A DNA stretch of 64,000 nucleotides, from positions 39,720-103,719 of the forward strand of contig JANOCT010000043.1 of assembly GCA_031412335.1 (NCBI GenBank), given 5' to 3'. Below, one piece after another: positions 300 to 40,415 of the stretch. The notes below the pieces were generated by a model. The model searched no databases and had not been told where the DNA came from. It saw only the letters and a list, made by a program, of their open reading frames with translations. Every line of letters starts with the position of its first letter. Position 1 is the first letter of the stretch. The stretch comes from a bacterium. GTDB lineage: Bacteria > Bacteroidota > Bacteroidia > Sphingobacteriales > Sphingobacteriaceae. The position numbers and the translations under genes are program-made.

Positions 300-336
300 G
301 TTACTTTATTGCAAAGAATTAGCGCAATAAAGTAAC
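300..336 (-). terminator. Perfect 13-bp hairpin at the 3' end of the giant gene, with its stop codon in the loop; possible partial terminator or attenuator before the PorP/SprF gene
   Basis: Arms gttactttattgc (300-312) and gcaataaagtaac (324-336) are exact reverse complements. The loop holds the TAA (319-321 on the minus strand). On the minus strand the stem is followed by ATTTTTCC. Confidence 0.45.
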
Positions 337-9927: not shown

Positions 9928-10019
9928 AGGCCACTGTATTATTAGTCGCCCTTTGTACGGTTGATGTTTTAAAAAGTTATAGTAGATTGTTAATAACTAT
10001 TTTTCTAAGAATCAGCCTA

Positions 10020-10649
10020 TTAATTAAGGTTAAGTTTTTTTCTAAAAACAAAGTTTGATATTTGAATAGTAGTTTCAAGTTCTAATTTTTTCAAAATTCT
10101 TGATTTGAATGTTGCAACCGTGGCTACTCCAATATTTAATTCCTCTGCAATGGCTGCTGTAGTTTTTCCTTTAGAAATAAGCATCATAACTTGATATTCT
10201 CTTTTTGATAACAAATCAACTTTGAATTTATCATTACTGCTAAATTCGTTTGAATCTTCCCCAAGACCAGAAATAATAAAATTCTCCTTCTTCAGGATTC
10301 TTCTGATTGATTTAACTAATTTATCACTTGCTACATCTTTGGCTACGTATGCTTTAGCTCCATTTTTAAAAGCTCGTTCAGCATATTTCTCTTCTGAATG
10401 CATACTTAACACTACAATTTTTAAATTTGGATATTGCTTATTTAAATCTGATATTATTTCCAAACCGTTTCTTCCTGGAAGTGAAATATCCAGCAATAAA
10501 ACATCTGCTTTTTTTAAAAGTTTAAGTGCAAATAATTCTTCTGAACTACCTGCCTCACCTATTACTTTCATATCGACTTCTTCTGCTAAAATTTTTTTAA
10601 GACCGTCTCGAACTATCGTGTGATCATCCGTCAAAATAATTTTTACCAT
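10020..10649 (-). CDS. Response regulator, NarL/LuxR family (receiver + LuxR-type HTH)
   Basis: Receiver motifs (ILTDDH, LLLDISLPG, K in AKAYVAKD). C-terminal LSKREYQVMMLISKGKTTAAIAEELNIGVATVATFKSRILKKL is a LuxR-type HTH. Confidence 0.9.
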   Translation of the reverse strand: MVKIILTDDHTIVRDGLKKILAEEVDMKVIGEAGSSEELFALKLLKKADVLLLDISLPGRNGLEIISDLNKQYPNLKIVVLSMHSEEKYAERAFKNGAKAYVAKDVASDKLVKSIRRILKKENFIISGLGEDSNEFSSNDKFKVDLLSKREYQVMMLISKGKTTAAIAEELNIGVATVATFKSRILKKLELETTIQISNFVFRKKLNLN

Positions 10650-10652
10650 TTT

Positions 10653-11693
10653 TTAATTTTTAATTGGAAGATCAATAATTACTCGTGTACCGCTTAGCTT
10701 TCCTGGTTGAAATCGTATTGTTCCATTAGCTGTATTTACACGTTCTTTCATTCCAATAATTCCTAATGAGTCATTTGAAAATATAATTGGAGAGTTCATT
10801 CCAATACCATTATCTGCAATTTCAATTTTTAGTTTTTCATTGATAGTTCTTATCTTAATGTTCACTTTCATGGCTTTTGAATGCTTTGCAACATTGGTTA
10901 AACTCTCTTGAATTAATCGATATGCAGTCGTTGTTAAATCATCAGAAAGTAATTCATCTGCCTGTTTTAAGGTAAGTTTATATTTGATAGCAGATTTTTT
11001 TGAAAAATCCTGAACATACCATTTTATAGCATCAGTAAATCCCAATTCTTCAATTCGTACAGGCTTTAACTCAGTCGCAATCTTTTTTACTGATTTTATG
11101 GTATCATTTATATAACCCATTATATCTATTAGTTCGTCATCTATTTCAATTATAGATAAACGGGTAAATTTTCGCCCGAACAAAGATATTCTTATTTTTA
11201 AAGCAGTAAGTACTTGGCCAAGTTCATCGTGGATTTCTCTTGAAACTCTATTTCGCTCTACTTCCTGAATTTTTTCAATTCTATTGTAAAGCGCACGCAA
11301 TTGAAGATTTGCATTAATCTCTTGATTTTTAGCAAGAACTTGATAATTTACATCAAGACTAGTTAATAAATAATCAAATGATTTTCCTTTTTTGGTTTTT
11401 TGAATATAAGAATCTAGGTATATTTCTGTCCCATTTTTATCATAAATCTTAGAAACTCCTAAACTAAAAGGTTTTTCAGTAATTTTTTTTGAATGTTCCT
11501 TAATCCTCTTTGTCAACTCTTCACCTATAAAATTTGAAACTGAATAAGGTAAGGCAATTTCCTTATTGAAATTAAAAAGCCTCTTACCCTCTTCATTTAT
11601 TTCAATTAGGTGTAAACTATCATTCGCAAAAATTACCATTGCCGAACAATTGTTTTTAAAAAAAGCATTGCAGAGTTCTTCGTTATAATCCAC
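10653..11693 (-). CDS. Cytoplasmic sensor histidine kinase, HisKA_3 (NarX/DegS-like) type, with an N-terminal PAS-like region
   Basis: H-box REIHDELGQVLTALK. HATPase region LIQESLTNVAKHS...IADNGIGM...GIIGMKERV. No TM segment is visible. It lies 3 nt upstream of the regulator gene. Confidence 0.85.
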   Translation of the reverse strand: MDYNEELCNAFFKNNCSAMVIFANDSLHLIEINEEGKRLFNFNKEIALPYSVSNFIGEELTKRIKEHSKKITEKPFSLGVSKIYDKNGTEIYLDSYIQKTKKGKSFDYLLTSLDVNYQVLAKNQEINANLQLRALYNRIEKIQEVERNRVSREIHDELGQVLTALKIRISLFGRKFTRLSIIEIDDELIDIMGYINDTIKSVKKIATELKPVRIEELGFTDAIKWYVQDFSKKSAIKYKLTLKQADELLSDDLTTTAYRLIQESLTNVAKHSKAMKVNIKIRTINEKLKIEIADNGIGMNSPIIFSNDSLGIIGMKERVNTANGTIRFQPGKLSGTRVIIDLPIKN

Positions 11694-11765
11694 TGAAAGT
11701 ATTAGAGATTAATTTAAAACTAACGATAAATTATTCTTGAAATTAAAATATGATCATTAATATGC

Positions 11766-11792
11766 AAAAAAAAAGCTGGATAAACCAGCTTT
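11766..11792 (-). terminator. Rho-independent terminator after the 11801-12457 regulator gene
   Basis: The minus strand reads aaagctgg-tttat-ccagcttt followed by a T-run (plus-strand A-run 11766-11774). It begins 8 nt after the stop codon. Confidence 0.65.
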
Positions 11793-11800
11793 CAATTAGT

Positions 11801-12457
11801 TTAAATATAACATTGCTGAATGGCGTATTTGAGTAAGCCAATATTCTTTTTTATATTTAGTTTAATCATCATATTTCTTCGATGTGTATCAACCGTTCTT
11901 GCGCTTATATTTAGTAAATCAGCGATTTTTTTAGTAGGAAATTCATTCGAAATATATTTTAGAATTTCTATTTCACGCTCTGTAAGCATGATATTTTCTG
12001 CATTACTCTTCTTAGGTTCATTATTTTTCGTCAAATATCTTGACACAATAACTTCAGATATTTCTTTTTGCAAATAAGCGTTGCCTTTATAAACCTCTTC
12101 AATGGCAACAGTCAGTTCATCTTTACCCAAGGTTTTTAATAAGTAACCATTGGCCCCTGCTTGCAACATTTTATCAATATTAGTATAATTGTCTAGCATT
12201 GACAATGCAATTACTTTAATATGATTGTGGCTTTTTTTCAACAAAGACGTGGCCTCTAGTCCATCCATTATTGGCATATTGATGTCAATCAAAACGACAT
12301 CAACTTCAATAGTATTTATTAAATCGAGTACTTCTTTGCCATTTTCAGCTTCGCCTACAATGGATATGTTTTTCGCTCCTTTTAGTATTGCTTTTAATCC
12401 ATGACGCATCATTTTATGGTCATCTGCGATTATTAAACGGATTTGAGTATTAGACAT
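11801..12457 (-). CDS. Response regulator, NarL/LuxR family
   Basis: Receiver (IIADDH, VLIDINMPIMDG, K in ANGYLLK). LuxR HTH LTEREIEILKYISNEFPTKKIADLLNISARTVDTHRRNMMIKL. Confidence 0.9.
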   Translation of the reverse strand: MSNTQIRLIIADDHKMMRHGLKAILKGAKNISIVGEAENGKEVLDLINTIEVDVVLIDINMPIMDGLEATSLLKKSHNHIKVIALSMLDNYTNIDKMLQAGANGYLLKTLGKDELTVAIEEVYKGNAYLQKEISEVIVSRYLTKNNEPKKSNAENIMLTEREIEILKYISNEFPTKKIADLLNISARTVDTHRRNMMIKLNIKKNIGLLKYAIQQCYI

Positions 12458-12917
12458 GATAGATTTCTTTAACGTGAGATGTTAATCAATTGTTAAGCCT
12501 CTTTACGTAGTAAGGAAAGAAATGGATACATATTTTATTTTTAATCATAAAAGGTTTATTAAAAACTATTCAAAAATCAATTGTTTAACAGAATCTACTT
12601 TTATTCAAACATTCAAAAATAATAAAATTTACGTAAGTAATAATACGTATTTGAAAATCATTTAATACTTAGAAAATATACACGAAATAGCGTATTGATG
12701 GCATTTAAAGCCCTATTTACCTTTGAAATAATTAATCTACTCCTTTTCTAAATACTTAATCGCTAATTCAACAAAAATGAAAAACCTACTTTTTATCAAC
12801 AAATTTTCACAAAAAATAATTCTTCACACTACTATATCTCTTATGTTGATAATGGTTGGAAACACTTTATCTCTTTATGTGTAAGCTTGTTTAATGATTT
12901 TAAAAATCTTTAACCGC

Positions 12918-12986
12918 TCATTCCTCTTGATTGTTTTATTCAAATCAAATAATGAATAATTTTTCAAGAGGAATGATTTTTGCAAT
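12918..12986 (+). promoter_or_regulatory. 13-bp perfect inverted repeat overlapping a weak sigma-54-like -24/-12 element upstream of the receiver gene
   Basis: tcattcctcttga (12918-12930) and tcaagaggaatga (12964-12976) are exact reverse complements with a 33-nt spacer. aGGaatgatttTTGCAat has GG (12970-71) and GC (12982-83) at the canonical 10-nt spacing, about 25 nt before the ATG at 13009. Confidence 0.3.
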
Positions 12987-13008
12987 ATATTTTTCATATT
13001 GTTGCTAA

Positions 13009-13407
13009 ATGTCTGAACACCCAATCCTGATTATTGATGACGAGAAGGACATTTGTCAGCTTCTCAGTATTGCACTTAGAAAGAAAAAATTTACCGTTTA
13101 TTCTGCTAATAGTATTAAAGATGGGCTTGTTTTGATTGATACCATTTATCCTGAATATTTATTTCTAGATGTAAACTTGCCCGATGGATCTGGCTTATCG
13201 CTAATTTCTCAAATTCGTATAAAGTACCCCAAAGCTGGGATTATTGTAATAAGTGCGTACGACAATCAAAAAGACAAAATTATTGCCTTGCAAAATGGAG
13301 CAGATATTTATGTAAGTAAGCCCTTCAATAATTCTACAATCTATGAATCTATCAATCATATTTCAAGTAAATATGGTGGCTCCAGAATAAACGAATTATC
13401 AAATTAG
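13009..13407 (+). CDS. Stand-alone CheY-like receiver protein
   Basis: 132 aa, receiver domain only (ILIIDDE, LFLDVNLPDGSG, K in ADIYVSKPF). Confidence 0.85.
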   Translation: MSEHPILIIDDEKDICQLLSIALRKKKFTVYSANSIKDGLVLIDTIYPEYLFLDVNLPDGSGLSLISQIRIKYPKAGIIVISAYDNQKDKIIALQNGADIYVSKPFNNSTIYESINHISSKYGGSRINELSN

Positions 13408-13504
13408 TAATTGATTATTGTTACTATTTTTTTCAAGTTATCGGTTTTCTATAAAATTTAATAAGTTTGGGGAATCTTAAATAAAATAGGATCTAAGGAT
13501 TTTA

Positions 13505-14884
13505 ATGAAAAAAATATTAATTGTTGACGACGAAGTAACAATTTGTCAGCTTTTGTCAAAATTTTTGACAAATAAAGGCTTTACAGTAGAAACAGCAGGA
13601 TCAGGTGCAAGAGCAGTCGAGATTTTAAAAAACGATATTTTTGATCTTGTTTTATGCGATTATAGACTAGGAGATACAGTTGGTGAGGAATTATTACTTA
13701 AAATAAAAGCATTAAACCCGAACGCTGCAGTTATAATTATAACAGGCTATTCCGACATAAAAATTGCTGTAAAAGTAATTAAATTAGGTGCTTTTGATTA
13801 TGTAACCAAACCGCTTTTCCCCGACGAAATTCTTCATACAATAAAGAGAGCATTAGATACAAGTGATGTTGATGAAATAAACTTTCATCCAATTAAAGCT
13901 AAAATTAAATCAGGAAATGGTTTTCAGGACTCATCAGGTCAATTTGTTATTGGAGATAGTCCAGCAATAAAAGAAATTTATAAACAGATAGATTTGGTTG
14001 CTCCTACCAATTACAGTGTTATTATTTTTGGGGAAAGCGGAACAGGTAAGGAAAGTATCGCAAGAAGTATACATGAAAGAAGTCCAAGAAAAGATAAACC
14101 TTTTATCGCTATGGATTGTGGTTCATTGTCTAAGGAATTGGCTGGCAGTGAATTTTTTGGTCATGAAAAAGGATCATTCACTGGAGCATTCGCTACTAAA
14201 ATCGGACATTTTGAACTGGCTAATGGTGGTACTTTATTTTTAGATGAAGTAGGAAATCTTTCTTACGAAATTCAAGCATTACTCTTAAGAGTAGTGCAAG
14301 AACGAAAAGTGAAAAAAATTGGTGGTACAAAAGAATTGGATTTGGATGTAAGAATAATTGTAGCATCGAATGAAAACTTGCAGGAGGCATTTCAGAAAGG
14401 TAAATTCAGAGAAGATTTATTTCATCGTTTTAATGAGTTTGCAATGACTTTGCCTCCACTACGCGAACGTGGAAATGATATTTTAGCATTCGCCGATTTC
14501 TTTTTGCATGAAGCTAAAACAGATTTAGGAAGAAACGTAGAAGGTTTTTCTGCCGAAGTAAGAGAGAGTTTTTTAAACTACCAATGGCCTGGAAATATAA
14601 GAGAAATGAAAAATGTGATACGACGGGCGTGTTTATTATCTGATGGAAACCTTGTTGAATCCAAATCATTACCATCAGAAATTATTAATTTTTCTAAATT
14701 TCAATTTGTAACAGAAGATAGATCGGATAGAGCTCCCAATTTAAAGGCCACAGCTATGGAAGCAGAATTTGAAACTATTTTAAAGGTTTTGAAACAAGTG
14801 AATTATAATAAAACTAAAGCTGCTACCATATTGAATATTGACAGGAAAACCCTTTACAATAAAATGAAAGCATTTAATTTGTAA
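13505..14884 (+). CDS. Sigma-54-dependent transcriptional activator (NtrC family: receiver + AAA+ + Fis-type HTH)
   Basis: Receiver (ILIVDDE, LVLCDYRL). Walker A GESGTGKE. GAFTGA-type loop GSFTGA. Walker B LFLDEVG. C-terminal HTH NKTKAATILNIDRKTLYNKMK. Confidence 0.9.
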   Translation: MKKILIVDDEVTICQLLSKFLTNKGFTVETAGSGARAVEILKNDIFDLVLCDYRLGDTVGEELLLKIKALNPNAAVIIITGYSDIKIAVKVIKLGAFDYVTKPLFPDEILHTIKRALDTSDVDEINFHPIKAKIKSGNGFQDSSGQFVIGDSPAIKEIYKQIDLVAPTNYSVIIFGESGTGKESIARSIHERSPRKDKPFIAMDCGSLSKELAGSEFFGHEKGSFTGAFATKIGHFELANGGTLFLDEVGNLSYEIQALLLRVVQERKVKKIGGTKELDLDVRIIVASNENLQEAFQKGKFREDLFHRFNEFAMTLPPLRERGNDILAFADFFLHEAKTDLGRNVEGFSAEVRESFLNYQWPGNIREMKNVIRRACLLSDGNLVESKSLPSEIINFSKFQFVTEDRSDRAPNLKATAMEAEFETILKVLKQVNYNKTKAATILNIDRKTLYNKMKAFNL

Positions 14885-15094
14885 CTTATTTTATTCCAAT
14901 TTCCATTTTTTCTTTCATACAAAATTAACTTTAGCATTTTTTTAAAATCTGTTTTAAAAAACTATGTTCTGTTTTTTTGATTGTAGGCTTTGATCTTTTT
15001 ACCTTAATTAAGTAATTTTTTAATTACCAATACAGCCATTTACCCACTTTTGATAATAAAATCAATAGTTTAGAAAATTATTTTAATCGTATTA

Positions 15095-17404
15095 ATGCAA
15101 AAAATTTTTATCTCCGCTTTATTTTTACTCATTTTTCAAACAAATTTATTTAGCCAAGACAGTTACAATAAATCAAAATTTCATCAACTAGAAGAAATCT
15201 GGCCAACTCCAAATACTTATCGAACTGGTTCTGGTTCTCCAGGAGTTGAGTATTGGCAACAAAAAGCTGACTATGATATTAAAATTGAGTTAAATGATAA
15301 AAACCAAAGTGTAAAAGGATCTGAAACTATTACTTACACCAACAATTCACCAGATGCTTTAAGCTATTTGTGGGTTCAGTTAGATCAAAATATTTTTGAT
15401 CCAAACTCGATGACCTATTTAACAGAGACCAGAAATATAAGCGATAGCCTAAGTTTTGAAGGATTTGATATGCTTACCAGAAACTCATTTGATGGCGGTT
15501 ATAAAATTTCATCGGTAAAAGATGGTAAAGGAACTAAGCTAAAATTTACGATTAATAATACCATGATGCGGATTGATCTTTCTTCACCACTTAAAAGCAA
15601 AGGTGTTTTTCAGTTTTCAATTGATTGGGAAAACTTTATTAATAATGCAAGAACGAACGGAGGAAGAGGAGGCTATGAATATTTTAAAACAGATAATAAT
15701 TATTTGTACGAAATGGCACAATGGTTTCCTAGAATGGCAGTTTATGATGATGTAGATGGGTGGCAAAACAAGCAATATCTTGGAAATGGTGAATTTGCTT
15801 TAACGTTTGGCGATTATAAAGTTGCAATTACTGTTCCGGCAGATCATGTGGTTACCGCTACTGGAGTGCTTCAAAATGCAGGTTCAGTTTTAAGTAAATC
15901 ACAACAAAACCGATTAAAAGAAGCAGAAAACAGTAAAAAACCAATATTGGTTATTACTCCCGCAGAAGCACTAGAAAATGAAAAATCAAAATCCGAGTCC
16001 AAAAAAACATGGATTTTTAACGCTGAAAACGTTCGGGATTTTGCTTGGGCCTCGTCCAAAAAGTTTATTTGGGATGCATTGGGTGTAAAAGTTGGAAACA
16101 AAACTGTTATGGCGATGTCCTTATATCCAAAAGAAGGAAATCCACTTTGGGAATTATATTCAACTCAAGCAATTGCTCAAACTTTACTGACCTATTCTCG
16201 CTATACTGTCAATTATCCATATCCTGTTGCAATTTCTGTAAACGGACCAATAGGCGGAATGGAATATCCGATGATTTGTTTCAATGGACCTCGGCCAGAA
16301 ACAGATGGAACGTATTCTTCAAGTACAAAATATGACTTAATCGGTGTTGTAATTCATGAAGTTGGCCATAATTACTTTCCAATGATTATCAATTCAGATG
16401 AGCGGCAATGGACTTGGATGGATGAAGGTTTGAATACTTTTTGCCAATATTTAACCGAACAAGAATGGGAAGAAAATTACCCTTCCAGTCGTGGTGAAGC
16501 CAGAAACATTGTCAATTATATGTCATCCAATAAAGATGTTTTAGATCCGATCATGACTAATTCTGAATCGATTCTGCAATTTGGAAATAATGCATATGGA
16601 AAACCAGCAACAGCCTTAAATATTTTGCGTGAAACCGTGATGGGTAGAGAATTATTCGATTTTGCATTCAAACAATATGCTGAAAAATGGGCCTTTAAAC
16701 ATCCTATGCCATCAGATTTTTTTAGAACGATGGAAGATGCTTCGGCGGTTGATTTAGATTGGTTTTGGAGAGGTTGGTTTTATGGAACAGATCCTGTAGA
16801 TATTTCTTTGAAAAAGGTTTCTACCTATAAAATTGACACTCGGAACCCAGAAAAAGAAAAAACAAACAAAAAGCAAAAACGAGATAGTGAGCCATTATCT
16901 ATTTCTGAGCAACGAAATAAAACATCTATCAAAAAATATCGTGTAGAAGATTATCCTGAGCTTTCAGATTTCTATTCAAAGTACGATGCTTTAGATGTAA
17001 CTGATTATGATAAAGGAAAGTACAAAACCTATTATGATGCTCTTGACGAAAAACAACGTAAAAAATTAGAGTCGGGAATGTATTATTATGTATTGGATTT
17101 AGAGAATGTTGGTGGCTTAGTTTCGCCGGTAATTATAGAGCTTGAATTTGCCAATGGAGAAAAAGAAGTACAAAGAATACCTGCAGAAATTTGGCGTAAA
17201 AATTCACAAAAAGTATCTAAATTGTTGATAACTGATAAAGCTGTAAAACAATTTTCTTTAGATCCATTTCAAGAAACTGCAGATATTAATCGAAATAATA
17301 ACTTTTATCCAGCAAAAACCTTGGAAACTCCATTTCAACTTTTCAAGGAACGACAAATTAAACAGCAAAATTTAATGCAGTTGAAGCGAGATGGTAAACT
17401 TTAA
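15095..17404 (+). CDS. M1-family zinc metallopeptidase (aminopeptidase N-like), secreted
   Basis: Signal peptide. HEVGHNYF ... WMDEGLNTF gives the HExxH-x18-E zinc site. Confidence 0.85.
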   Translation: MQKIFISALFLLIFQTNLFSQDSYNKSKFHQLEEIWPTPNTYRTGSGSPGVEYWQQKADYDIKIELNDKNQSVKGSETITYTNNSPDALSYLWVQLDQNIFDPNSMTYLTETRNISDSLSFEGFDMLTRNSFDGGYKISSVKDGKGTKLKFTINNTMMRIDLSSPLKSKGVFQFSIDWENFINNARTNGGRGGYEYFKTDNNYLYEMAQWFPRMAVYDDVDGWQNKQYLGNGEFALTFGDYKVAITVPADHVVTATGVLQNAGSVLSKSQQNRLKEAENSKKPILVITPAEALENEKSKSESKKTWIFNAENVRDFAWASSKKFIWDALGVKVGNKTVMAMSLYPKEGNPLWELYSTQAIAQTLLTYSRYTVNYPYPVAISVNGPIGGMEYPMICFNGPRPETDGTYSSSTKYDLIGVVIHEVGHNYFPMIINSDERQWTWMDEGLNTFCQYLTEQEWEENYPSSRGEARNIVNYMSSNKDVLDPIMTNSESILQFGNNAYGKPATALNILRETVMGRELFDFAFKQYAEKWAFKHPMPSDFFRTMEDASAVDLDWFWRGWFYGTDPVDISLKKVSTYKIDTRNPEKEKTNKKQKRDSEPLSISEQRNKTSIKKYRVEDYPELSDFYSKYDALDVTDYDKGKYKTYYDALDEKQRKKLESGMYYYVLDLENVGGLVSPVIIELEFANGEKEVQRIPAEIWRKNSQKVSKLLITDKAVKQFSLDPFQETADINRNNNFYPAKTLETPFQLFKERQIKQQNLMQLKRDGKL

Positions 17405-17888
17405 ATTTGTAGGCAGTTTAATTATTTGTTTGTTTTTGACGAGCAAAGTACCAGCAACTCATAAATTTTACACATCCATTACTCAAATAGATTACAACGA
17501 AAAGTCTAAATCATTTGAAATTATCATGCGTGTTTTTGTTGATGATCTGGAAAAGTCAATTACAGTCCAGAGAAAAAAAAATTATAAAATTGCTAATGAT
17601 TTAGATAATAAATTATTGATCAACTATTTATCTGATAAATTTTTAATTCAAGCGAATCAAAAAACCTTACAAACAAAAGTAATCGGAACTGAACTGGAAC
17701 GTGATATTTTAATTATTTATTTAGAAACTTCATCATCTTCAAATGCGAATACTTTACGAATTAAAAACTCCGTTTTGACAGAACTTTTCCCCAGTCAAAC
17801 CAATATTGTAAACATTAATTTTATTCAAAAAAAAGAAACATTCGTTTGCAATGCAGATCAGCCTGAAAAAGTTTTACTTTATCATTAA
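17391..17888 (+). CDS. Small secreted protein of unknown function (resembles the DUF6702-type partner often found after Bacteroidota M1 peptidases)
   Basis: 165 aa with a signal peptide. Overlaps the peptidase stop by 14 nt. The family assignment is from memory of the HKFY.S.TQI.YN motif only. Confidence 0.45.
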   Translation: MVNFKFVGSLIICLFLTSKVPATHKFYTSITQIDYNEKSKSFEIIMRVFVDDLEKSITVQRKKNYKIANDLDNKLLINYLSDKFLIQANQKTLQTKVIGTELERDILIIYLETSSSSNANTLRIKNSVLTELFPSQTNIVNINFIQKKETFVCNADQPEKVLLYH

Positions 17889-18028
17889 AACTGACTATTT
17901 TTCAGTTTACTTGCTATTTTTTGTTGAATTTATTTGTTGGCATACGGCTTGTTTACTTTAAGCCCATATTCAATTTTTCTGTTTTATTCATTATAACTGT
18001 CAGTTTGACGGTTTCATAAATCTCATCC

Positions 18029-20518
18029 ATGAGCTATTTCGATCCTTTTGATAAATTAAACGGTCCGCCGTCCTACATAAATGAAGATACTGAGTTTTTT
18101 CCGTTAATGACGGCTGAAGACGAGGAGGAAATGAATGCCGAACAAACTCCAGAAACATTATCAATTTTACCATTAAGAAATACCGTCCTTTTTCCAGGTG
18201 TCGTTATTCCAATTACAGTTGGAAGAGACAAATCCATAAAACTGATAAAAGATGCCTACAAAGGCAAAAAAGTTATTGGCGTTGTTTCTCAAAAAGATGT
18301 TTCTGTTGAAGATCCTACTGTAGAAGACCTAAATAAAATAGGAACAGTAGCTTATATTGTTAAAATGTTGCAAATGCCAGATGGCAATACAACTGTAATA
18401 ATACAAGGCAAGCGAAGATTTGAAATTGTTGATGTAACGAATACAGATCCATATGTAAAAGCTATAATTCAGCCGATCGACGACATTAAACCAAAAAAAG
18501 ATAAAGAGTTTACTGCCTTAGTATCATCGTTGAAAGAATTATCTACACAGATTATTCAATTCTCGCCAAACATACCAACAGAAGCTGCATTTGCAATTAA
18601 AAACATTGAAAGCCCTTCATTTCTAATCAATTTCATATCATCAAATATGAATGCAGAAGTTGCTGAAAAGCAACGAATTCTGGAAATTGCAGATTTAAGA
18701 CAGCGAGCTCAATTAGTATTAGAGCACCTAACTCGTGATTTGCAGATGCTAGAGCTTAAAAATCAAATTCAATCGAAAGTTAGAATTGATATTGATAAAC
18801 AACAGCGTGAATATTTTCTAAATCAGCAATTAAAAACAATTCAAGAAGAACTGGGTGGCGATAATCCTGATTATGAAATTGCTAATCTTCGAGAAAGAGG
18901 CACTAAAAAGAAATGGTCTAAAGAAATTAATGAAACATTTAATAAGGAATTAGACAAGTTGCAACGAATGAATCCTGCAGCTGCAGATTATTCTGTTTTA
19001 TATAATTATGTAGAATTACTTTTAGAATTGCCTTGGGGAGAATTTACCAAAGATAATTTTGATTTAAGCCGTGCTCAAAAAGTACTTGATAAAGATCATT
19101 ATGGTTTAGATAAAGTAAAAACGCGTATCCTAGAATATCTTGCTGTGTTGAAATTGAAAAACAACATGAAAGCGCCTATTTTATGTTTGGTTGGCCCTCC
19201 TGGAGTTGGAAAAACTTCATTAGGAAAATCTATTGCAAAAGCATTAAACAGAAAATATGTACGAATTGCCTTAGGTGGTATTAGGGATGAGGCTGATATT
19301 CGTGGACATCGGAAAACGTATATTGGAGCTATGCCTGGTAGAATAATTCAGTCCTTGAAAAAGGCCCAAACCAGCAATCCTGTATTTGTTTTAGACGAAA
19401 TAGATAAAGTTGGAAATGACTTTAGAGGCGATCCATCATCTGCTTTATTAGAAGTTTTGGATCCTGAACAAAACATTGCTTTTTATGATCATTATGTAGA
19501 ACAGGATTACGATTTATCCAATGTAATGTTCATTGCAACTGCAAATTCATTAAGTAATATTCATCCAGCATTAATAGACAGACTGGAGATAATAGAAGTA
19601 AACGGATATACGGTTGAAGAAAAAATTGAAATTGCCAAACAACATTTAATTCCTAAACAGCGAGAAGCTCATGGTTTAAAACCCAAAGATATTACCATAA
19701 AATCAGATATTGTTGAAATGGTTATCGAAGATTACACGCGTGAATCAGGAGTGCGTGGTTTGGAGAAAAAACTGGCAACACTTACTCGTGGAGTTGCAAA
19801 AAGCGTTGCGGTTGAAGAAAAATATAATAAAGTTGTACTGAAAAAAGATGTAGAGCGCATTTTAGGCGTAGCAGATTACGAGAAAGATTCTTATCAAGAT
19901 AATCATACTGCTGGTGTAGTTACTGGTTTAGCATGGACATCCGTTGGTGGCGATATATTATTTATCGAAGTAAGCCTTTCAAGAGGTAAAGGTAAACTTA
20001 CCCTCACCGGAAATTTAGGTGATGTAATGAAAGAATCAGCAGTAATTGCCTTGGCATATTTGCGTGCACATTCTAATTTAATTGGTCTACCAGTAAAAAT
20101 ATTTGATCAGTGGGATATACATGTGCATGTACCAGCTGGTGCGGTTCCCAAAGATGGCCCTTCTGCTGGTATTACAATGTTAACTGCCTTAACTTCAGCA
20201 TTTACTCAGAAAAAGGTAAAGCCAAATCTGGCAATGACTGGCGAAATAACCTTGCGAGGTAGAGTTTTACCGGTTGGAGGTATTAAAGAAAAAATACTAG
20301 CAGCCAAACGAGCAAATATTAAAGAAATCATTTTATCAAAATCTAATAGGAAAGATATTGAGGATATTAAAGCAAGCTATATTTCTGACATGAAGTTTCA
20401 TTATGTAACCGATATGAAAGAAGTTGTACAATTAGCTTTAATGGATGAAAAGGTTGAAAATGCAATTGATATCAGTATAATTGAAGAAACTACTCCATTG
20501 AATTCGGCAGTTTTATAG
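18029..20518 (+). CDS. lon: ATP-dependent Lon protease
   Basis: 829 aa. Walker [10 protein letters not shown]. Proteolytic-site motif [14 protein letters not shown]-terminal domain present. Confidence 0.95.
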
Positions 20519-34422: not shown

Positions 34423-35631
34423 ATGAAAACCCTTCGCCAATTATTTCTGGAGCATAACGCCCAAACAACCGACTTTCCGCTTATGCTTGAAATTGCAAAA
34501 GCTGAAGGCATATACCTTTATGATCAGGAAGGTAAAAAATACTTCGATCTGATTTCTGGAATTGGGGTAAGTAATATTGGACATAGCAACCCAAAAGTAA
34601 TAGATGCCATAAGCAAACAAGCGGCAGATTATATGCACTTGATGGTTTATGGAGAATATATACAAACACCACAAGTTCGCTATGCAGAAGCATTAGCTAA
34701 ATTTTTACCCGAAAGTTTAAATGCTATATATTTCCTAAACTCAGGTTCGGAAGCCATAGAAGGCGCAATGAAACTGGCTAAAAGAGTAACCGGAAGAACA
34801 GAAATTATTGCCTGCAAAAACTCCTACCATGGCAGCAGCCAAGGCTCATTGAGTATCATGGGAAATGAAGAATACAAGATGGCATATCGCCCCTTACTCC
34901 CAGATATTTCTTTCATCCGCTACAATGAGATAGAAGATATTTCATTAATTACCAGCCTAACTGCCGCAGTATTTATTGAAACCATACAAGGGGAATCGGG
35001 TGTTACCATCCCCACTAAAGAATATTTACAAGCCTTACGAAAGCGCTGTGATGAAACCTGTACTTTATTAGTTTTTGACGAAATACAATGTGCTTTTGGT
35101 CGCACCGGAAAGTTATTTGCTTTTGAAAACTTTGATGTAATTCCAGATGTGTTGGTACTGGCAAAAGCGCTGGGTGGTGGAATGCCTTTAGGTGCATTTT
35201 GTGCTTCAAGCAAATTAATATCGGTATTAAAAGAAAATCCAATATTAGGTCACATCTCCACTTTTGGTGGTCACCCAGTTTGTTGTGCTGCTGGCTTAGC
35301 CGCATTTACTTTTTTAACTGAAAATAAATTGCCCCAATCTGTCGCACGGAAATCTGAATTATTCAAAGAATTATTAGTTCACCCACTCATCAGCGAATTT
35401 AGAGGAATTGGCCTAATGATGGCACTCCAACTCCCTGATTTTGAAACACTCAAGAACGTTATTGATCGCAGCATACAAAAAGGAGTAATCACAGATTGGT
35501 TTCTGCACAATAACAATAGCATGAGATTGGCTCCACCATTAATTATAACAGAAGATGAGATAAGGGAGGCTTGTGGGGTGATATTGGATGGGTTGGATGA
35601 GAAGGAAACTAATAGATTAACTTTTAAATAA
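34423..35631 (+). CDS. Class-III PLP-dependent aminotransferase (acetylornithine/ornithine aminotransferase-like)
   Basis: SGSEAIEGAMKLAK, DEIQCAFGRTGKLFAFE, PLP-lysine context VLAKALGGGMPLGAF. Confidence 0.9.
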   Translation: MKTLRQLFLEHNAQTTDFPLMLEIAKAEGIYLYDQEGKKYFDLISGIGVSNIGHSNPKVIDAISKQAADYMHLMVYGEYIQTPQVRYAEALAKFLPESLNAIYFLNSGSEAIEGAMKLAKRVTGRTEIIACKNSYHGSSQGSLSIMGNEEYKMAYRPLLPDISFIRYNEIEDISLITSLTAAVFIETIQGESGVTIPTKEYLQALRKRCDETCTLLVFDEIQCAFGRTGKLFAFENFDVIPDVLVLAKALGGGMPLGAFCASSKLISVLKENPILGHISTFGGHPVCCAAGLAAFTFLTENKLPQSVARKSELFKELLVHPLISEFRGIGLMMALQLPDFETLKNVIDRSIQKGVITDWFLHNNNSMRLAPPLIITEDEIREACGVILDGLDEKETNRLTFK

Positions 35632-35671
35632 AATTAAACGAGAATTGATATTAAAAAGAATTTGATTACTA

Positions 35672-36253
35672 ATGAACATACAAAATAAACTTAAAGACCT
35701 TAAGGACCAAAAAAGTTATAGTAGTCCAGCAAAAAGAGTTATGGAACATTTGCAACCTATCCTCAACAAATCAAACGACTTGCGACAAAGATGGATGTGG
35801 GAATTACTTCAAAATGCAAGTGACTTAGGAGACAATGTAAAAGCAAGGTTTGAAATAAATACTGATAAATTAAAATTCAGTCATAACGGAAAACCATTCA
35901 CTTTAATCGAAGCATATAATTTAATTATGCCGGACTCTAATAAAGATGATGAAGCTACACATAAGAAGAGTGTTATCGGACAGTTTGGAACAGGTTTTAT
36001 TTCAACACATATACTTTCCAAAATTATTCAGATCGAAGGAATAATAGAAGATGAAGAGCAACTTTACGGTTTCAACTTTCAACTTGACAGAAGCGAACGA
36101 AACGATAAAGACTTTCTAATTCAATCAATTAAAAACTCAGAAGCACAGTATTGGGAAAATCCTAAAGAAATTGACGAGCTTCCAGATGATGAATTTCAAA
36201 CTTCATTTACTTATTACATTGACAACACCTACTCATCTTTGATAGGGCAATAA
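35672..36253 (+). CDS. GHKL (sacsin/NO VEIN-like) ATPase domain; N-terminal fragment of an interrupted gene
   Basis: Bergerat-fold motifs: N-box WELLQNASD, SHNGKPF, G-box GQFGTGFIS. It ends at a TAA that is in frame with the next ORF. Confidence 0.7.
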   Translation: MNIQNKLKDLKDQKSYSSPAKRVMEHLQPILNKSNDLRQRWMWELLQNASDLGDNVKARFEINTDKLKFSHNGKPFTLIEAYNLIMPDSNKDDEATHKKSVIGQFGTGFISTHILSKIIQIEGIIEDEEQLYGFNFQLDRSERNDKDFLIQSIKNSEAQYWENPKEIDELPDDEFQTSFTYYIDNTYSSLIGQ

Positions 36254-36286
36254 ATCGTTGATGACGGAATTGAAAGTTTTATAGAA

Positions 36287-38131
36287 TTGATATCTTATGT
36301 TTTTGCCTTTAGGTCACAATTGTTAGAAATAGAAATAATTGATTATAGAATTGAAACTTCTAAATTAATGTTTAAAAGAGAAGAGTTGAAAAGTGAAATT
36401 CATAACAGTTTAATAATAATAAAAACTATTTGTTATAAAAACGACAAACATTTCGAAGATAAATTAATAGGAAATATTCTTGAAGGCGAAACTGAAATTG
36501 CTTTTCCAATCGAAGAAATAGAAGGAGGAAAATTTCTTCTTCTTCCTTTCCCTAAGAATTGTCCAAAGCTTTTTTGTGCGTTTCCTATGATAGGAACTAG
36601 TGAGTTCAATTTTCCAGTTGTACTTCATAGTGAAAAGTTTGTTCCAAACATAAATAGAGATGGAATTGAACTTTCAAAATTTGATAAAGAAAATAGGGAA
36701 AGGCTTTTGGAAGCAAAGAAAGCATTCAAAATCCTACTGGAAATTGTTGAGAAAAACCAATGGAAAGAAACCTACAATATTTGCAATATCACAAATCCTG
36801 ATATAAAAGAAATAGAGACAAAAGAATGGTTCATGAAAGAAGTATTTAATCCTATTAAGGAAGGTATTTTTAATACTAATTTGATTGAACTTGAGCCATC
36901 TTTAAATTTAAATATTCATAGGAAAGCCTTAAGTTCTATTTATATTCCATATGTAGAAAGAAAAATAAAAGAACCGCAAATTACTATTGAAATTATTTAC
37001 AATTTAGGATTTAAATTAATTCCTGAACAGCTTCCAAAGAAAGATCATATATTAAATTGGTATCAAATTATCAATTTTGAAATATTTAATGAAATTAAAT
37101 TAGATATTGACAAACTGTGTGAAATCGTTGCAAATCCAGAAAAAATAAGTAAACTTTCCATAAAGTATCTTTATGATCTTGTGACATTTATAATTTCAAA
37201 AGATAGAAAAGACCTATTAGATAAATACGGTTTGCTATCAAATCAAAAACTTCAATTAAAAAAAATAAAATTATTAAAGAATGACAGAACAAAACATAAA
37301 AGTTTAAAAGAAAGTGATAGTGAAAAGCTAAAAGATATTTATAATTCAATATCTGGCAAAGATTGTAGAGAAAATCTCCTTCATAAGGAATTCGAGACAA
37401 TAGAGAACATAATTGAGAATGATTGTAAATACGATTTTGAAGATCTTGCTAAAAACACTGACGAAGAGCTTAGAAATTATGAAGGGAACTTTCAAGATGA
37501 AGGATTCTTGTTAATATTAAAAGACCTTTTTAATTGGTTCACCACTTGCGAACTTTCAGAAGATACCTTAATAAATTTATTTCCATACTTCTCGCAAAAC
37601 AAAGCTCAATTATACTTAAATACAAAAACATCACAAGAACTGGAATATGCTTTTGACATTGAAATAAGTGGAAAAAGTGAGGTATTGGCAAAACTTGCTA
37701 AAAGTTCGCTTTCTATTTCAGATTTAGACATTATTGCTGAAAATTCTAGCTCATTTTTAGATTTTGTAAAGTTTCTTAACAGTAAACAAGAAGATAATCC
37801 AAATGAAGAATTGGGTCAAATTGGAGAAGAGTTTTTACATAATCATTTAATTCAGGTTTTTGGAAAAGATAAAGTACTATGGGAAAACACTTCGGAATAT
37901 GATTTTAGAATATTAGAGAACGATTTGATCAATACGAAATATTATATAGATGCAAAAACCACGGGAAAAGGAATTTCGAACAGTGATAATGTACCATTCT
38001 TTATGAGAATTGCACAATGGACTTTCTTAGATAAAAACGAAGCAAGTGATAAGTATATCATTGCAAGAATTTTTAAAAATGAAAATACAATTGATGTAAA
38101 ATATTTAAAATTAGATACCAAAATTTTATAG
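36287..38131 (+). CDS. C-terminal fragment of the same gene: long helical middle region plus a DUF3883 (NO VEIN C-terminal, PD-(D/E)xK-like) domain
   Basis: Same frame as 35672-36253 and open from 36254. The C-terminus GQIGEEFLHNHL...EYDFRILE...YYIDAKTT...FFMRIAQWTF...YIIARIF fits the DUF3883 pattern G..GE...YD[FI]...[IV][ED].K.T. Confidence 0.65.
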   Translation: MISYVFAFRSQLLEIEIIDYRIETSKLMFKREELKSEIHNSLIIIKTICYKNDKHFEDKLIGNILEGETEIAFPIEEIEGGKFLLLPFPKNCPKLFCAFPMIGTSEFNFPVVLHSEKFVPNINRDGIELSKFDKENRERLLEAKKAFKILLEIVEKNQWKETYNICNITNPDIKEIETKEWFMKEVFNPIKEGIFNTNLIELEPSLNLNIHRKALSSIYIPYVERKIKEPQITIEIIYNLGFKLIPEQLPKKDHILNWYQIINFEIFNEIKLDIDKLCEIVANPEKISKLSIKYLYDLVTFIISKDRKDLLDKYGLLSNQKLQLKKIKLLKNDRTKHKSLKESDSEKLKDIYNSISGKDCRENLLHKEFETIENIIENDCKYDFEDLAKNTDEELRNYEGNFQDEGFLLILKDLFNWFTTCELSEDTLINLFPYFSQNKAQLYLNTKTSQELEYAFDIEISGKSEVLAKLAKSSLSISDLDIIAENSSSFLDFVKFLNSKQEDNPNEELGQIGEEFLHNHLIQVFGKDKVLWENTSEYDFRILENDLINTKYYIDAKTTGKGISNSDNVPFFMRIAQWTFLDKNEASDKYIIARIFKNENTIDVKYLKLDTKIL

Positions 38132-38267
38132 AATTTTAGTATATTTTAATACACCTAAATAAAATTTTGAAAAAATATTTAAACTAATTTTAGCTCTTTC
38201 TTTTGCAAAACATGACTTATCCGAAATAATTATAATTAAAATGAATACCTAGATACTTATAATAACA

Positions 38268-39260
38268 ATGACATTTAAAATAGAAGAATTAATAATTAAA
38301 AATGACAGCGAAACTGAACAGGTAAGATCTAAAGAGATATTTGAAACACTTAAGAACAAAGCAATTAGAGGAAAAACTCTATCAGAACATGAGAAAAATT
38401 TCTTCTGTAAAGGAGTTCAACTTTCAAAATTAAATGTTGGAATTTTGGAAGATTATTATTGTTGTAAGAATTATAAGTTTAAATATATCTACTTATGTTA
38501 CTTTTATGACTTAGCTGGTGGTAGTATATTTTATAAAAGAAATAGAGCTGAAATTTACAAAGTTGAACAAATTGAAGCCGAAATTGACCTTAAATATTTA
38601 TATACAACAGCTGAAGATTGGAAATTAATTATACAAAAGACAAACCATAAGGATAAAGTACTACAAGAAATTTCAATAGAAACTAGGAAAGGATTAAAAG
38701 AATTATCAAATCTACCGGAAGTTTTGAATGGTTTTTGGCGGAAAGGATCAAATCATTATATTTTAATGGAGAGAGAAATCCTTTTAAGTTTAAAGTTTAT
38801 TTATTGTATAGTAATTGAAGTGTTTGAAACAATTGAATTAAATGACTTAATATTAAAAGTTAATTCAATTAAAATTGAATTTAATGAATACAGTTTAATA
38901 CATATTTTAAATAGACATTTTTCTGCAATAACTAAAGCTTATGACACTAAAAAATCATTTCACAATGAACAATTTAAACCGAGAATTATTATTTCTCAAA
39001 TAAAAGAAATACTTACTCAAATAGATAATTCTCAATTTTTAAAGAATTCAACTATTGACAAAATTGGCTTTCGACAAAATGGAATAGACTATTTGATTTG
39101 GACAAAAGAAAAAAATAGGTCAATTAAAGGAATCAATGAAATTTACAGACGACTAGAAACATTTTATATAGTTACTGATGAAAATGAAAAAATTAAACTT
39201 GTTTCTGATTATAATCTTAAAACAGTAAATAACTTTTTGTCAGTATACGTGCCGAAATAA
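38268..39260 (+). CDS. Hypothetical protein with no recognisable family
   Basis: 330-aa ORF, very AT-rich, no signal peptide or TM segment, Lys/Ile/Glu/Asn-rich, same strand as the GHKL gene. The only motif-like string is SLIHILNRHF. Confidence 0.5.
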   Translation: MTFKIEELIIKNDSETEQVRSKEIFETLKNKAIRGKTLSEHEKNFFCKGVQLSKLNVGILEDYYCCKNYKFKYIYLCYFYDLAGGSIFYKRNRAEIYKVEQIEAEIDLKYLYTTAEDWKLIIQKTNHKDKVLQEISIETRKGLKELSNLPEVLNGFWRKGSNHYILMEREILLSLKFIYCIVIEVFETIELNDLILKVNSIKIEFNEYSLIHILNRHFSAITKAYDTKKSFHNEQFKPRIIISQIKEILTQIDNSQFLKNSTIDKIGFRQNGIDYLIWTKEKNRSIKGINEIYRRLETFYIVTDENEKIKLVSDYNLKTVNNFLSVYVPK

Positions 39261-39506
39261 TCTATAATTGCTTTAATTTTTAAAATTATCAAAACTCTTT
39301 AAATTCGTTAATAAAAAGCATTAATCTCTCGTATTTTATTTATTATTTCAGAAAGAGATTATTTAAAAAAGATAGAAAATAATTCAAGGAAGTCTTGGCT
39401 GACATTTAACTTCGAAATTAAAATTTAAATGACAGTTTTAAATAGATTTTGAAATTTTTCAAGGTAGTTTAAGATTACTAATTAATACGAAAACAACCAA
39501 CACCCC

Positions 39507-40415
39507 CTACCTCATCCTCCCCCTCTTAATCATATACGCATTCAACACTCCCGAAAAGCCATCTTTTATATCTGCATCAATTAAGTCAATGCGGTATTGA
39601 GCACATTTAGTTTCTAATTCTTTGCGGTGCATGGTTATGGCTTTCAAGTATTCTTCTTTTACTTGGTCGGGAAATAATTTCACTTTTTCACCCGATTCCA
39701 CATCTACAAATATGTATGGACGGTTGGGGAAATCGAAGTCCACTTCTTGCTCTTTTTGGGTAACATTAAATACCACTACTTCATGTTTGTTATGCTTCAA
39801 ATGTTGCAGGGCAGCAAAAACAGATTCACTTTCGCCTACATTTTCAAACGTATCGGTAAACAAAATAATGAGCGAACGCTTATGTACACTTTCTGCTATT
39901 TGGTGCAAAGCAGCAGAAATTCCAGTTTTACGCTGCACATTCGTTTTTAACATTTTCTCTAACTGATTGAAAATCAATTTTTGATGCACAGTTGTAGATT
40001 TTGCTTCCGAATGAAAATCAATTTCTTCCGAAAAAACGCTTAATCCAAAAGCATCTCGTTGTTTTTTTAGCAAATAAACCAGCGCAGCAGCAGCTTCTAC
40101 TGCAAATTGTATTTTAGAATATCCTACTGTTGGGTAGTACATCGACGATGATTGATCGATTACAAGCTGGCAACGCAAATTTGTTTCTTCCTCAAATCGT
40201 TTTACAAACAATTTATCGGTGCGGGCATACAACTTCCAATCAATGTTTTTTATCGACTGGCCTGAATTGTAAGATCGGTGTTCGGCAAACTCAACCGAAA
40301 AACCGTGAAATGGACTTTTATGCAATCCCGTTATGAATCCCTCAACTACCTGAGCAGCCAATAGTTCCAGGTTTTCAAAATTTCGGATACCTGCCTCTTG
40401 GTGAAAACTTTCCAT
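39507..40415 (-). CDS. DUF58 domain protein (vWA-fold, usually MoxR-associated)
   Basis: HKSPFHGFSVEFAEHRSYNSGQSIKNIDWKLYARTDKLFVKRFEEETN is the DUF58 signature. vWA-like LVIDQSSSM follows. Confidence 0.8.
   Translation of the reverse strand: MESFHQEAGIRNFENLELLAAQVVEGFITGLHKSPFHGFSVEFAEHRSYNSGQSIKNIDWKLYARTDKLFVKRFEEETNLRCQLVIDQSSSMYYPTVGYSKIQFAVEAAAALVYLLKKQRDAFGLSVFSEEIDFHSEAKSTTVHQKLIFNQLEKMLKTNVQRKTGISAALHQIAESVHKRSLIILFTDTFENVGESESVFAALQHLKHNKHEVVVFNVTQKEQEVDFDFPNRPYIFVDVESGEKVKLFPDQVKEEYLKAITMHRKELETKCAQYRIDLIDADIKDGFSGVLNAYMIKRGRMR

Follow-up and report, generated by a model that had tools for sequence, protein, structure and literature searches.

An exchangeable defence-cargo slot between aminotransferase and DUF58-like genes in a member of the Sphingobacteriaceae, holding a probably disrupted Tiamat-family gene and an independent, unannotated solo gene

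In a 64-kb stretch of a Sphingobacteriaceae genome (assembly GCA_031412335.1, contig JANOCT010000043.1, positions 39,720 to 103,719), here called the window, to which all coordinates without a locus label refer, an AT-rich island carrying two genes lies between a housekeeping aminotransferase gene and a DUF58-trxA-dnaE block. The first gene (gene 1) has the motifs of a GHKL ATPase and of a DUF3883 nuclease-fold domain, and the second (gene 2) encodes a 330-amino-acid (aa) protein that matched nothing recognisable. An initial annotation, made from the letters of the sequence, took the pair for a candidate defence module of foreign origin. This locus raises the questions of whether the island is indeed defence cargo and, if so, whether its two genes form one system. 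The best joint explanation of our data, which we consider likely to be correct, is that the junction is a hotspot whose cargo in the window consists of a disrupted gene of the Tiamat defence family and an independent, solo gene 2. The features of the site are as follows.

34423 to 35631, plus strand: left flank, class-III-type aminotransferase gene (tkt-sigma-orf-orf-aminotransferase synteny conserved in relatives).
35589 to 39502 (3914 bp): variable cargo segment between the aminotransferase and DUF58 genes, delimited by blastn against locus L062, synteny with locus L063, and GC content.
35672 to 38131, plus strand: gene 1, Tiamat family, TmtA-like, 819 codons if read through (PADLOC TmtA profile, homologs, AlphaFold [AF2] model).
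36251 to 36253, plus strand: in-frame TAA at codon 194 of gene 1, in the ATPase domain (alignment to homolog codons).
38132 to 38267: AT-rich intergenic spacer between gene 1 and gene 2, 17.6% GC.
38268 to 39260, plus strand: gene 2, encoding a 330-aa protein that stands alone and whose mobile family is unannotated (homologs, clusters, AF2 model).
39261 to 39506: AT-rich, non-coding island tail, 22.0% GC, with neither an open reading frame (ORF) nor an Rfam match.
39507 to 40415, minus strand: right flank, DUF58-like protein (label taken from the initial annotation, no family search), with trxA and dnaE beyond.

Relatives of the site were obtained by scanning metagenome contigs with the aminotransferase protein, followed by tblastn and blastn, and two of them (L062 and L063) were informative. 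In L063, the flank proteins of which are 80 to 92% identical to those of the window, the aminotransferase gene directly abuts DUF58-trxA-dnaE, and the site is thus empty. The flanks of L062 (metagenome contig OFCX01000120) share 93 to 96% nucleotide identity with the window; in blastn, homology was lost after window position 35588 and regained at 39503, 4 nucleotides outside the DUF58-like stop codon. At this same junction L062 carries 7.0 kb of entirely different genes (11167 to 18197), all on the minus strand, among which the following were recognised.

L062, 11190 to 11924, minus strand: PDC-M30B (DUF5131; E = 6e-126).
L062, 11926 to 13026, minus strand: PADLOC candidate PDC-M30A (GMT-wHTH; E = 1e-129).
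L062, 13029 to 14948, minus strand: Type III Mod (E = 1e-177).
L062, 14935 to 17670, minus strand: Type III Res (E = 2e-167).

Because the junction is empty in L063 and occupied by Type III restriction-modification (R-M) and PDC-M30 genes in L062, it is a hotspot for exchangeable defence cargo, and the proposal of a foreign, defence-type island is borne out to that extent. The initially proposed boundaries (35640 to 39506) agreed almost exactly with those set by the comparison with L062, and the positions of the same-strand ORFs between the aminotransferase gene and the DUF58-trxA-dnaE block, as well as those of the two AT-rich non-coding stretches, were confirmed. The foreign composition, at first suggested by spot counts, held statistically by GC content over 3.9-kb windows and by GC at third codon positions (GC3). 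The variable segment contains 26.2% GC, compared to 33.4% in the rest of the window, and is the lowest in GC of all 3.9-kb windows of the 64 kb (z = -3.7 against non-overlapping windows, the minimum of which is 29.0%); GC3 is 0.22 in gene 1 and 0.16 in gene 2, compared to 0.26 to 0.35 in the flanking genes. The site is a clean, small slot flanked by core genes, with three states: empty, Tiamat plus an orphan gene, or Type III R-M plus PDC-M30.

No tRNA gene was found anywhere in the window, no direct repeats were found at the island boundaries, and no integrase was evident among the listed window ORFs, which upholds the same three absences reported initially. On these grounds site-specific integration was rejected. 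Since integrase, tRNA and flanking repeats are all lacking, homologous recombination is the most economical and most likely route of exchange, by which cargo would be swapped through recombination in the conserved flanks; that this route is deduced solely from these three absences weighs against it. The left crossover would have fallen within the last ~14 codons of the aminotransferase gene (35589 to 35631), which lie inside the variable segment, and would have rewritten the 3' end of a housekeeping gene. The C terminus of the aminotransferase differs from that of its relatives, ending in ...ILDGLDEKETNRLTFK in the window, in ...ILESMGEVMKSI in L062 and in ...ILDSMDQVMESNV in L063. Chromosomal defence hotspots between core genes, such as the genomic-island hotspots of Pseudomonas (PMC12629846), resemble this site in that the same junction is empty or holds alternative defence systems in relatives and in that the cargo is low in GC. 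Unlike these Pseudomonas-type hotspots, the site described here lacks an integrase, a tRNA gene and an island backbone; with 0, 3.9 or 7 kb of cargo its slot is small, and on the left the breakpoint falls in the 3' end of a housekeeping gene. The site is an ordinary but tidy case of turnover in a defence slot.

Whether gene 1 and gene 2 belong together was assessed by their co-occurrence. The two genes are neighbours on one strand, separated by 136 bp, and both low in GC within one island, all of which favours a single defence module in which an ATPase-nuclease acts with a dedicated partner, as was initially proposed. The distribution of their homologs contradicts such a module. By tblastn, none of 54 TmtA-like loci had a gene 2 homolog within 10 kb (0/54), none of the gene 2 loci tested had a gene 1 homolog (0/7), and the Pfam tables of four later gene 2 loci held no HSP90-type ATPase. 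No ORF within 3 kb of gene 2 was conserved across 8 loci, the upstream neighbour being in turn Old, a Type II methyltransferase (MTase), a RES protein, pP_pnuc_1 or an integrase fragment, and no conserved neighbour was found in the close TmtA-like clade. The two-gene module was rejected on the basis of this co-occurrence and of the lack of a conserved neighbour of gene 2; it is largely refuted and, in our judgement, extremely improbable. The island cargo consists of two independent single-gene units; gene 1 and gene 2 are not partners.

Read through its stop codon, gene 1 encodes an HSP90-type GHKL ATPase followed by a middle domain, then a helical region and finally a C-terminal NOV_C domain. 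Two stretches of it were delimited.

35672 to 37309, plus strand: residues 1 to 546, HSP90-like GHKL ATPase and middle domain (TmtA profile, NF047352, Foldseek).
37826 to 38104, plus strand: residues 719 to 811, NOV_C/DUF3883 domain of predicted PD-(D/E)xK nuclease fold (NOV_C, invariant residues, model).

The five motifs on which the initial annotation of gene 1 was founded (WELLQNASD, SHNGKPF, GQFGTGFIS, EYDF and IDAKTT) were all present. In an alignment of 27 family members (A1), E44, N48, D51 and G103xxGxG108 (that is, G103, G106 and G108), which constitute the Bergerat motifs ExxxNAxD and GxxGxG, were invariant, and so were E719, D744, D760-x-K762 and Q782-W783, which constitute the PD-(D/E)xK signature. 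PADLOC profile PDLC03967 for TmtA matched gene 1 with an E value of 1.5e-111 (372.6 bits) and was matched by 27/27 family members (best E, 3e-129); the second TmtA profile, PDLC03968, matched gene 1 with an E value of 5e-10. The statement that no bacterial function is assigned to this architecture is thereby overturned, Tiamat being a named system, and the description of gene 1 as carrying a NO VEIN-like domain was right. The predicted GHKL fold was corroborated by NCBIfam NF047352 (P_loop_sacsin, "sacsin N-terminal ATP-binding-like"), at 63.5 bits against a cutoff of 50, and by the AF2 model (mean predicted local distance difference test [pLDDT] score, 85.2), for which Foldseek returned 300 Protein Data Bank (PDB) chains at E <= 1e-3; the 50 listed all belonged to the HSP90 family, aligned over the N-terminal and middle domains, and included HSP90B, TRAP1, GRP94 and HtpG (E, 3e-9 to 4e-6). 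Pfam HATPase_c and HATPase_c_3 gave no match in the window copy. Intact homologs of ~828 aa, with 60 to 72% identity over their full length, are common in Bacteroidota genomes and metagenomes.

On the strength of the N-terminal profile match, the PD-(D/E)XK domain and the single-gene organisation, gene 1 is by sequence a member of the Tiamat family. Several observations weigh against a simple equation with Tiamat as modelled. The PDLC03967 alignment pairs residues 1 to 546 of gene 1 with positions 1 to 545 only of the 1063 in the model, and residues 540 to 819 alone gave no PADLOC match at E <= 1e-3. The Pfam NOV_C family (PF13020) scored 16.5 bits on the window copy, under the gathering score of 22.1, so that the initial PD-(D/E)xK/NOV_C call stood at the level of the family, with NOV_C detected in 19/27 homologs (best E, 1.4e-6), several of which carry a precomputed PF13020 annotation, and with the signature residues invariant. 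In the model, the NOV_C region comprises helices at residues 712 to 730, 768 to 773 and 780 to 786 and strands at 735 to 737, 745 to 748, 755 to 764, 795 to 802 and 807 to 813, and DUF3883 has been placed in the PD-(D/E)XK superfamily by Steczkiewicz et al. (PMC3424549). On a Bacillus cereus FM1 plasmid (CP009368.1, 319566 to 321965), a 799-aa "HSP90-like ATPase family protein" shares 31% identity with the window family over its N-terminal ~445 residues only and has an unrelated C terminus; its neighbours are AbiH, a KAP P-loop NTPase and a "divergent AAA" gene. Because the TmtA match stops at position 545 of 1063, residues 540 to 819 are unmatched, and the B. cereus relative shares the N terminus only, the Bacteroidota clade of the window is read as a C-terminal variant within Tiamat that carries NOV_C, and not as a match to the full-length model. 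The conserved module of Tiamat would accordingly be, as judged from these alignments, the HSP90-like N-terminal and middle part, and TmtA-like proteins seem to swap C-terminal modules. Bacteroidota proteins of ~828 aa that are labelled "sacsin N-terminal ATP-binding-like" or "hypothetical" can thus be recognised as relatives of Tiamat in which NOV_C replaces the C terminus modelled by PADLOC.

Tiamat itself is attributed to Millman et al. 2022 and is listed as a defence system with an unknown mechanism (PMC12926258), which, together with the fact that an anti-phage role of the window subfamily is a prediction, tempers the functional reading of gene 1. Models for Tiamat exist in both PADLOC and DefenseFinder. 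It has been classed as a single-gene PD-(D/E)XK system (bioRxiv 10.1101/2024.10.26.620412), was detected by PADLOC in Flavobacterium (PMC12781566), and is frequent in Pseudomonas island hotspots (PMC12629846). Gene 1 resembles TmtA in the strong profile match over its N-terminal 546 residues, in being a single gene without a conserved partner in the close clade, in the PD-(D/E)XK nuclease domain of its family, and in its defence-island neighbours; it differs in family length (~820 to 830 aa, compared to a 1063-position model), in a C-terminal stretch of 280 residues that alone matches no PADLOC TmtA model, and in the premature stop of the window copy. HSP90-like GHKL ATPase and NOV_C (DUF3883) domains occur in the same order in eukaryotic NO VEIN and sacsin-type proteins, with which only the domains, and not orthology, are shared, and which act in plant development and as a neuronal chaperone, whereas the genes described here reside in prokaryotic defence islands. 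The model of gene 1 matches HSP90 proteins (HtpG, TRAP1, GRP94) over the N-terminal and middle domains, with conserved Bergerat motifs, but with only 10 to 15% identity and without the C-terminal dimerisation domain of HSP90, which is replaced by a fused nuclease domain. Judging by other fusions of GHKL clamps with nucleases, we infer that in an intact gene 1 protein the sensing of an infection cue would lead, through ATP-dependent dimerisation or a conformational switch, to licensing of the nuclease, which would then cut DNA.

In the window copy, the frame of gene 1 is interrupted by the TAA at codon 194, which splits it into ORFs of 193 and 614 aa. At this position six close homologs have GAA (Glu) and one has GAT. 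Residue 194 falls just ahead of a helix (196 to 213) in the model; as the stop thus lies inside the ATPase fold, two separate ORFs would split the domain. Apart from the stop, gene 1 showed no frameshift, and all 63 columns that are invariant in the family were intact. At the 266 positions where its 10 closest homologs agree, it has 19 private substitutions; these homologs have 1 to 41 each, and for a sequence 57 to 72% identical to them, 19 is not excessive. A change from GAA to TAA by a very recent nonsense mutation, which would make gene 1 a pseudogene, is the probable explanation. That the stop is a sequencing or assembly error and that the locus encodes an intact, functional Tiamat-type gene would agree with a codon one base from GAA, with the unbroken frame, with the 63 intact columns and with private substitutions within the range of homologs; in the source assembly itself, however, the protein was called as the 614-aa fragment (P0056), so that the sequence stands as deposited, and defence genes are commonly found inactivated. 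We therefore hold such an error to be rather unlikely and retain the nonsense mutation. Programmed recoding at the TAA was rejected, since no feature supports it and the homologs encode Glu (GAA) there. The window copy also lacks, in frame, ~11 residues of a variable helical region that close homologs retain (37190 to 37230; A1 columns ~548 to 560). Taken by itself gene 1 is routine, being another, probably dead, copy of a catalogued defence gene.

The habitat of TmtA-like genes was assessed at 36 homolog loci from the two ORFs closest to the gene on either side, which gave 126 ORFs. These included 8 Type I MTases, 5 HsdS subunits, 6 Type IIG enzymes and 5 MADS components; R-M and MADS neighbours therefore support a defence-island habitat for gene 1 homologs. 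In a distant TmtA-like clade (27 to 32% identity, many from metagenome-assembled genomes of gut Bacteroidales), a conserved neighbour of ~180 to 210 aa was present in 13/54 loci (L025 to L029, L031 to L033, L037, L040, L045, L052 and L059), mostly immediately upstream or downstream (e.g., L025, 9423 to 9950, and L027, 12430 to 13056); neither the window nor the close clade has it. As Tiamat is described as a single-gene system, this clade with its neighbour may represent a two-gene subtype. In L024, L036, L040, L044 and L045, the TmtA-like gene lies just downstream of two conserved ORFs of ~370 to 410 aa and 480 to 490 aa, which sit about 1.2 to 2.6 kb upstream of it; together with the 8 Type I MTases and 5 HsdS subunits among the 126 neighbouring ORFs, this arrangement suggests that several distant TmtA-like genes are embedded in Type I R-M operons.

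While the Tiamat family is already known, the gene 2 family is unannotated. The view that gene 2 is unassignable was upheld: it had no significant match in Pfam, NCBIfam or PHROGs or among known structures, PADLOC v2.0.0 returned 0 families at E <= 1, and it proved to be an independent mobile gene. We found 55 full-length homologs with 39 to 61% identity, all of which, where a source was named, came from Bacteroidota. The family comprises 348 clusters at 50% identity (E <= 1e-3), its full-length members are nearly all 290 to 380 aa and a single match, and it is always solo. Gene 2 homologs were also found on four IMG/VR contigs, among them two prophages: in L125, the homolog (8001 to 8990) is accompanied by a TerL gene (11893 to 13422) with 58% identity to that of Flavobacterium phage pippi8-1, and in L128 the homolog (7893 to 8903) is accompanied by a portal-like ORF (3515 to 4867). 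No match was found in 50,697 GenBank phage records or in 72,556 PLSDB plasmids. The chromosomal and mobile-element contexts are listed below.

Window: gene 2 itself, in the aminotransferase/DUF58 slot downstream of the TmtA-like gene.
L001: integrase fragments; downstream GajA (E = 3e-179) and GajB (E = 6e-135); HEPN/MNT; Fic.
L002 to L004: Tox-URI2 and antitoxin.
L005 and L006: mostly housekeeping genes.
L007 (mobilisable element): relaxase, MobC, serine recombinase, reverse transcriptase.
L117: full-length Old nuclease (E = 8e-233), 62 bp upstream of the homolog.
L118: Type II restriction endonuclease and MTase upstream; ZorA2 and an OmpA-like gene downstream; AbiEii and DarT/Macro nearby.
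L119: RES, HEPN, integrase.
L120: integrase, HsdR.
L122: housekeeping genes.
L123: conjugative transposon (TraM, TraO, TraQ, integrases).
L124: Gabija-like pair, Shedu SduA_C, PycTM.

Recognised defence, toxin-antitoxin or mobile-element genes lay within 8 to 10 kb in at least 8 of the 12 independent contexts. The gene 2 family travels alone through defence islands, conjugative transposons and prophages of Bacteroidota. An OLD/GajA-type AAA_15/AAA_21 ATPase was located close to the gene 2 homolog, on either side, in 4 of 11 independent loci (L001, 11875 to 13551; L117, 6167 to 7939; L123, 5009 to 6883; L124, 9501 to 11123), which could reflect chance within defence islands or a loose functional link.

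The AF2 model of gene 2 was confident (pLDDT, 91.6; predicted template modelling [pTM] score, 0.88) and comprised an N-terminal helical domain of ~190 residues and the following second domain.

38850 to 39257, plus strand: gene 2 residues ~195 to 330, predicted alpha+beta domain, candidate BECR-like RNase (H212, H217, K229 and T298; PBECR3 signal; model topology).

Conservation was read from alignment A3 (87 members) for invariant residues and from A2 for the closer set. H212 and H217 were invariant in the 87 members, down to 22% identity, within the motif S-x-x-H-[IL]-x-x-R-H-[FY]-A...K-[ST]-[FY]; E42, F71, W118, E138, K229 and Y275 were nearly invariant, and T298 was conserved in >=90% of the closer set. 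In the model, both His residues lie in a helix (207 to 222), followed by an extra helix, strands at 265 to 301 (with T298), and two more strands at 315 to 329. PBECR3 (PF18812) was the only Pfam family matched by more than one gene 2 member (7/87; best E, 0.0022), and the family consensus from 184 to 302 aligned with positions 11 to 113 of the 115 in the PBECR3 model (9.5 bits, E = 1.2; 12.1 bits for member P0287). PBECR domains are phage-Barnase-EndoU-ColicinE5/D-RelE-like nucleases that serve as effectors of phages and conjugative elements (Iyer et al. 2017, PMC5512222), and the BECR core consists of an N-terminal helix with a catalytic His, then 4 to 5 strands, with a C-terminal Thr or Ser (PMC5512222).

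Given the PBECR3 signal, the invariant His residues and the helix-then-strands topology, we tentatively propose, as a possibility somewhat short of even, that the C terminus of gene 2 is a BECR-like, metal-independent RNase domain set behind the helical domain. Gene 2 resembles PBECR3 and other BECR RNases (colicin D/E5, RelE, EndoU) in its predicted helix with an invariant His, its predicted beta-meander and its conserved Thr in a C-terminal strand, in the weak but repeated profile matches, and in its occurrence in phages, conjugative elements and conflict loci. It differs in its second invariant His, in the N-terminal helical domain, which is not described for PBECR, and in that it always occurs solo, at ~330 aa, and never within a polyvalent protein. 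Weighing against an RNase of this kind, all PBECR3 matches remained far under the 30-bit gathering score, the gene 2 of the window itself was unmatched, and Foldseek found nothing at E <= 1e-3 either in the PDB (best E, 0.38; TM <= 0.19) or in BFVD (best E, 0.08), BECR structures included. A profile of the 87 members gave only noise against PDB sequences, and so did the comparison with PHROGs. A HEPN Rx4-6H motif was rejected, as R216 and H217 are adjacent, and a match to DUF4930 that a single gene 2 member gave (E = 0.006) was put down to chance. In the N-terminal helical domain, C47, C66 and H127 are conserved or nearly invariant among closer homologs (residues 47, 65 to 66 and 127; window positions 38406 to 38408, 38460 to 38465 and 38646 to 38648) and may form a metal site.

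Our best guess at the role of gene 2 is that of a conflict effector, in which an N-terminal helical sensor or regulatory domain would control a C-terminal metal-independent BECR-like RNase with His212 and His217, in the leading helix, as its putative catalytic residues and with Lys229 and Thr298 contributing. A bolder version, to which we attach some but clearly limited likelihood, is that gene 2 founds a new single-gene, abortive-infection-type anti-phage system that is widespread in Bacteroidota and hops alone among defence hotspots, conjugative transposons and prophages, the helical domain sensing infection and releasing a His-His BECR-like RNase of a kind not recognised before. Against a defence role speak the 2 of the 12 contexts (L005/L006 and L122) that are mainly housekeeping, and the nature of the case, which is one of guilt by association. 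The prophage-borne homologs, those in a conjugative transposon and a mobilisable element (L123 and L007), and the description of PBECR domains as phage and conjugative-element effectors (PMC5512222) would also suit an effector of offence or anti-defence carried by mobile elements, or a moron of theirs for superinfection exclusion; the window copy would then be leftover cargo. Most contexts are nevertheless chromosomal defence islands by Gabija, Old, Zorya or R-M genes, the phage and plasmid collections and PHROGs yielded no match, and location in a prophage does not discriminate, because prophage-borne defence genes are also common; we regard such an effector as unlikely.

Gene 2 might, alternatively, be unconnected with conflict and serve some niche accessory function, for example as a regulator or small-molecule binder; it would then reside in variable regions by chance, and its His motif would be no RNase site. 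Such a role would be compatible with the lack of a significant family or structural match and with the two housekeeping-like contexts. This we deem distinctly improbable in view of the conflict and mobility genes around at least 8 of 12 contexts, of the R-M and PDC-M30 genes that fill the same slot in the sister genome of the window, and of a compact alpha+beta domain in which two strictly invariant His residues are joined by a conserved Lys and a conserved Thr, as is typical of a catalytic site. As a candidate for a new defence or counter-defence effector, gene 2 is credible but unproven. The main value of the locus lies in this gene, which is widespread and solo, has a confidently modelled fold without a counterpart, and has no Pfam, NCBIfam, PADLOC or PHROG entry; with a family that recurs next to Gabija, Old, Zorya, Shedu and R-M genes as well as inside prophages, it is a concrete candidate that is cheap to test, its two invariant His residues being ready targets for mutation.

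Gene 2 presumably has its own promoter in the spacer at 38132 to 38267. A sigma-70 scan of the AT-rich spacers gave promoter-like sites not above those in shuffled sequences, and no terminator-like sites were found in these spacers. A structured RNA was rejected, as the spacers had no Rfam match at E <= 1.

Elsewhere in the window, one giant ORF of 3202 aa extends from 319 to 9927 on the minus strand. The region from 10001 to 13000 is the next lowest in GC after the island (0.28 to 0.30), contains minus-strand ORFs of 209, 346 and 218 aa, and has a strongly negative AT skew.

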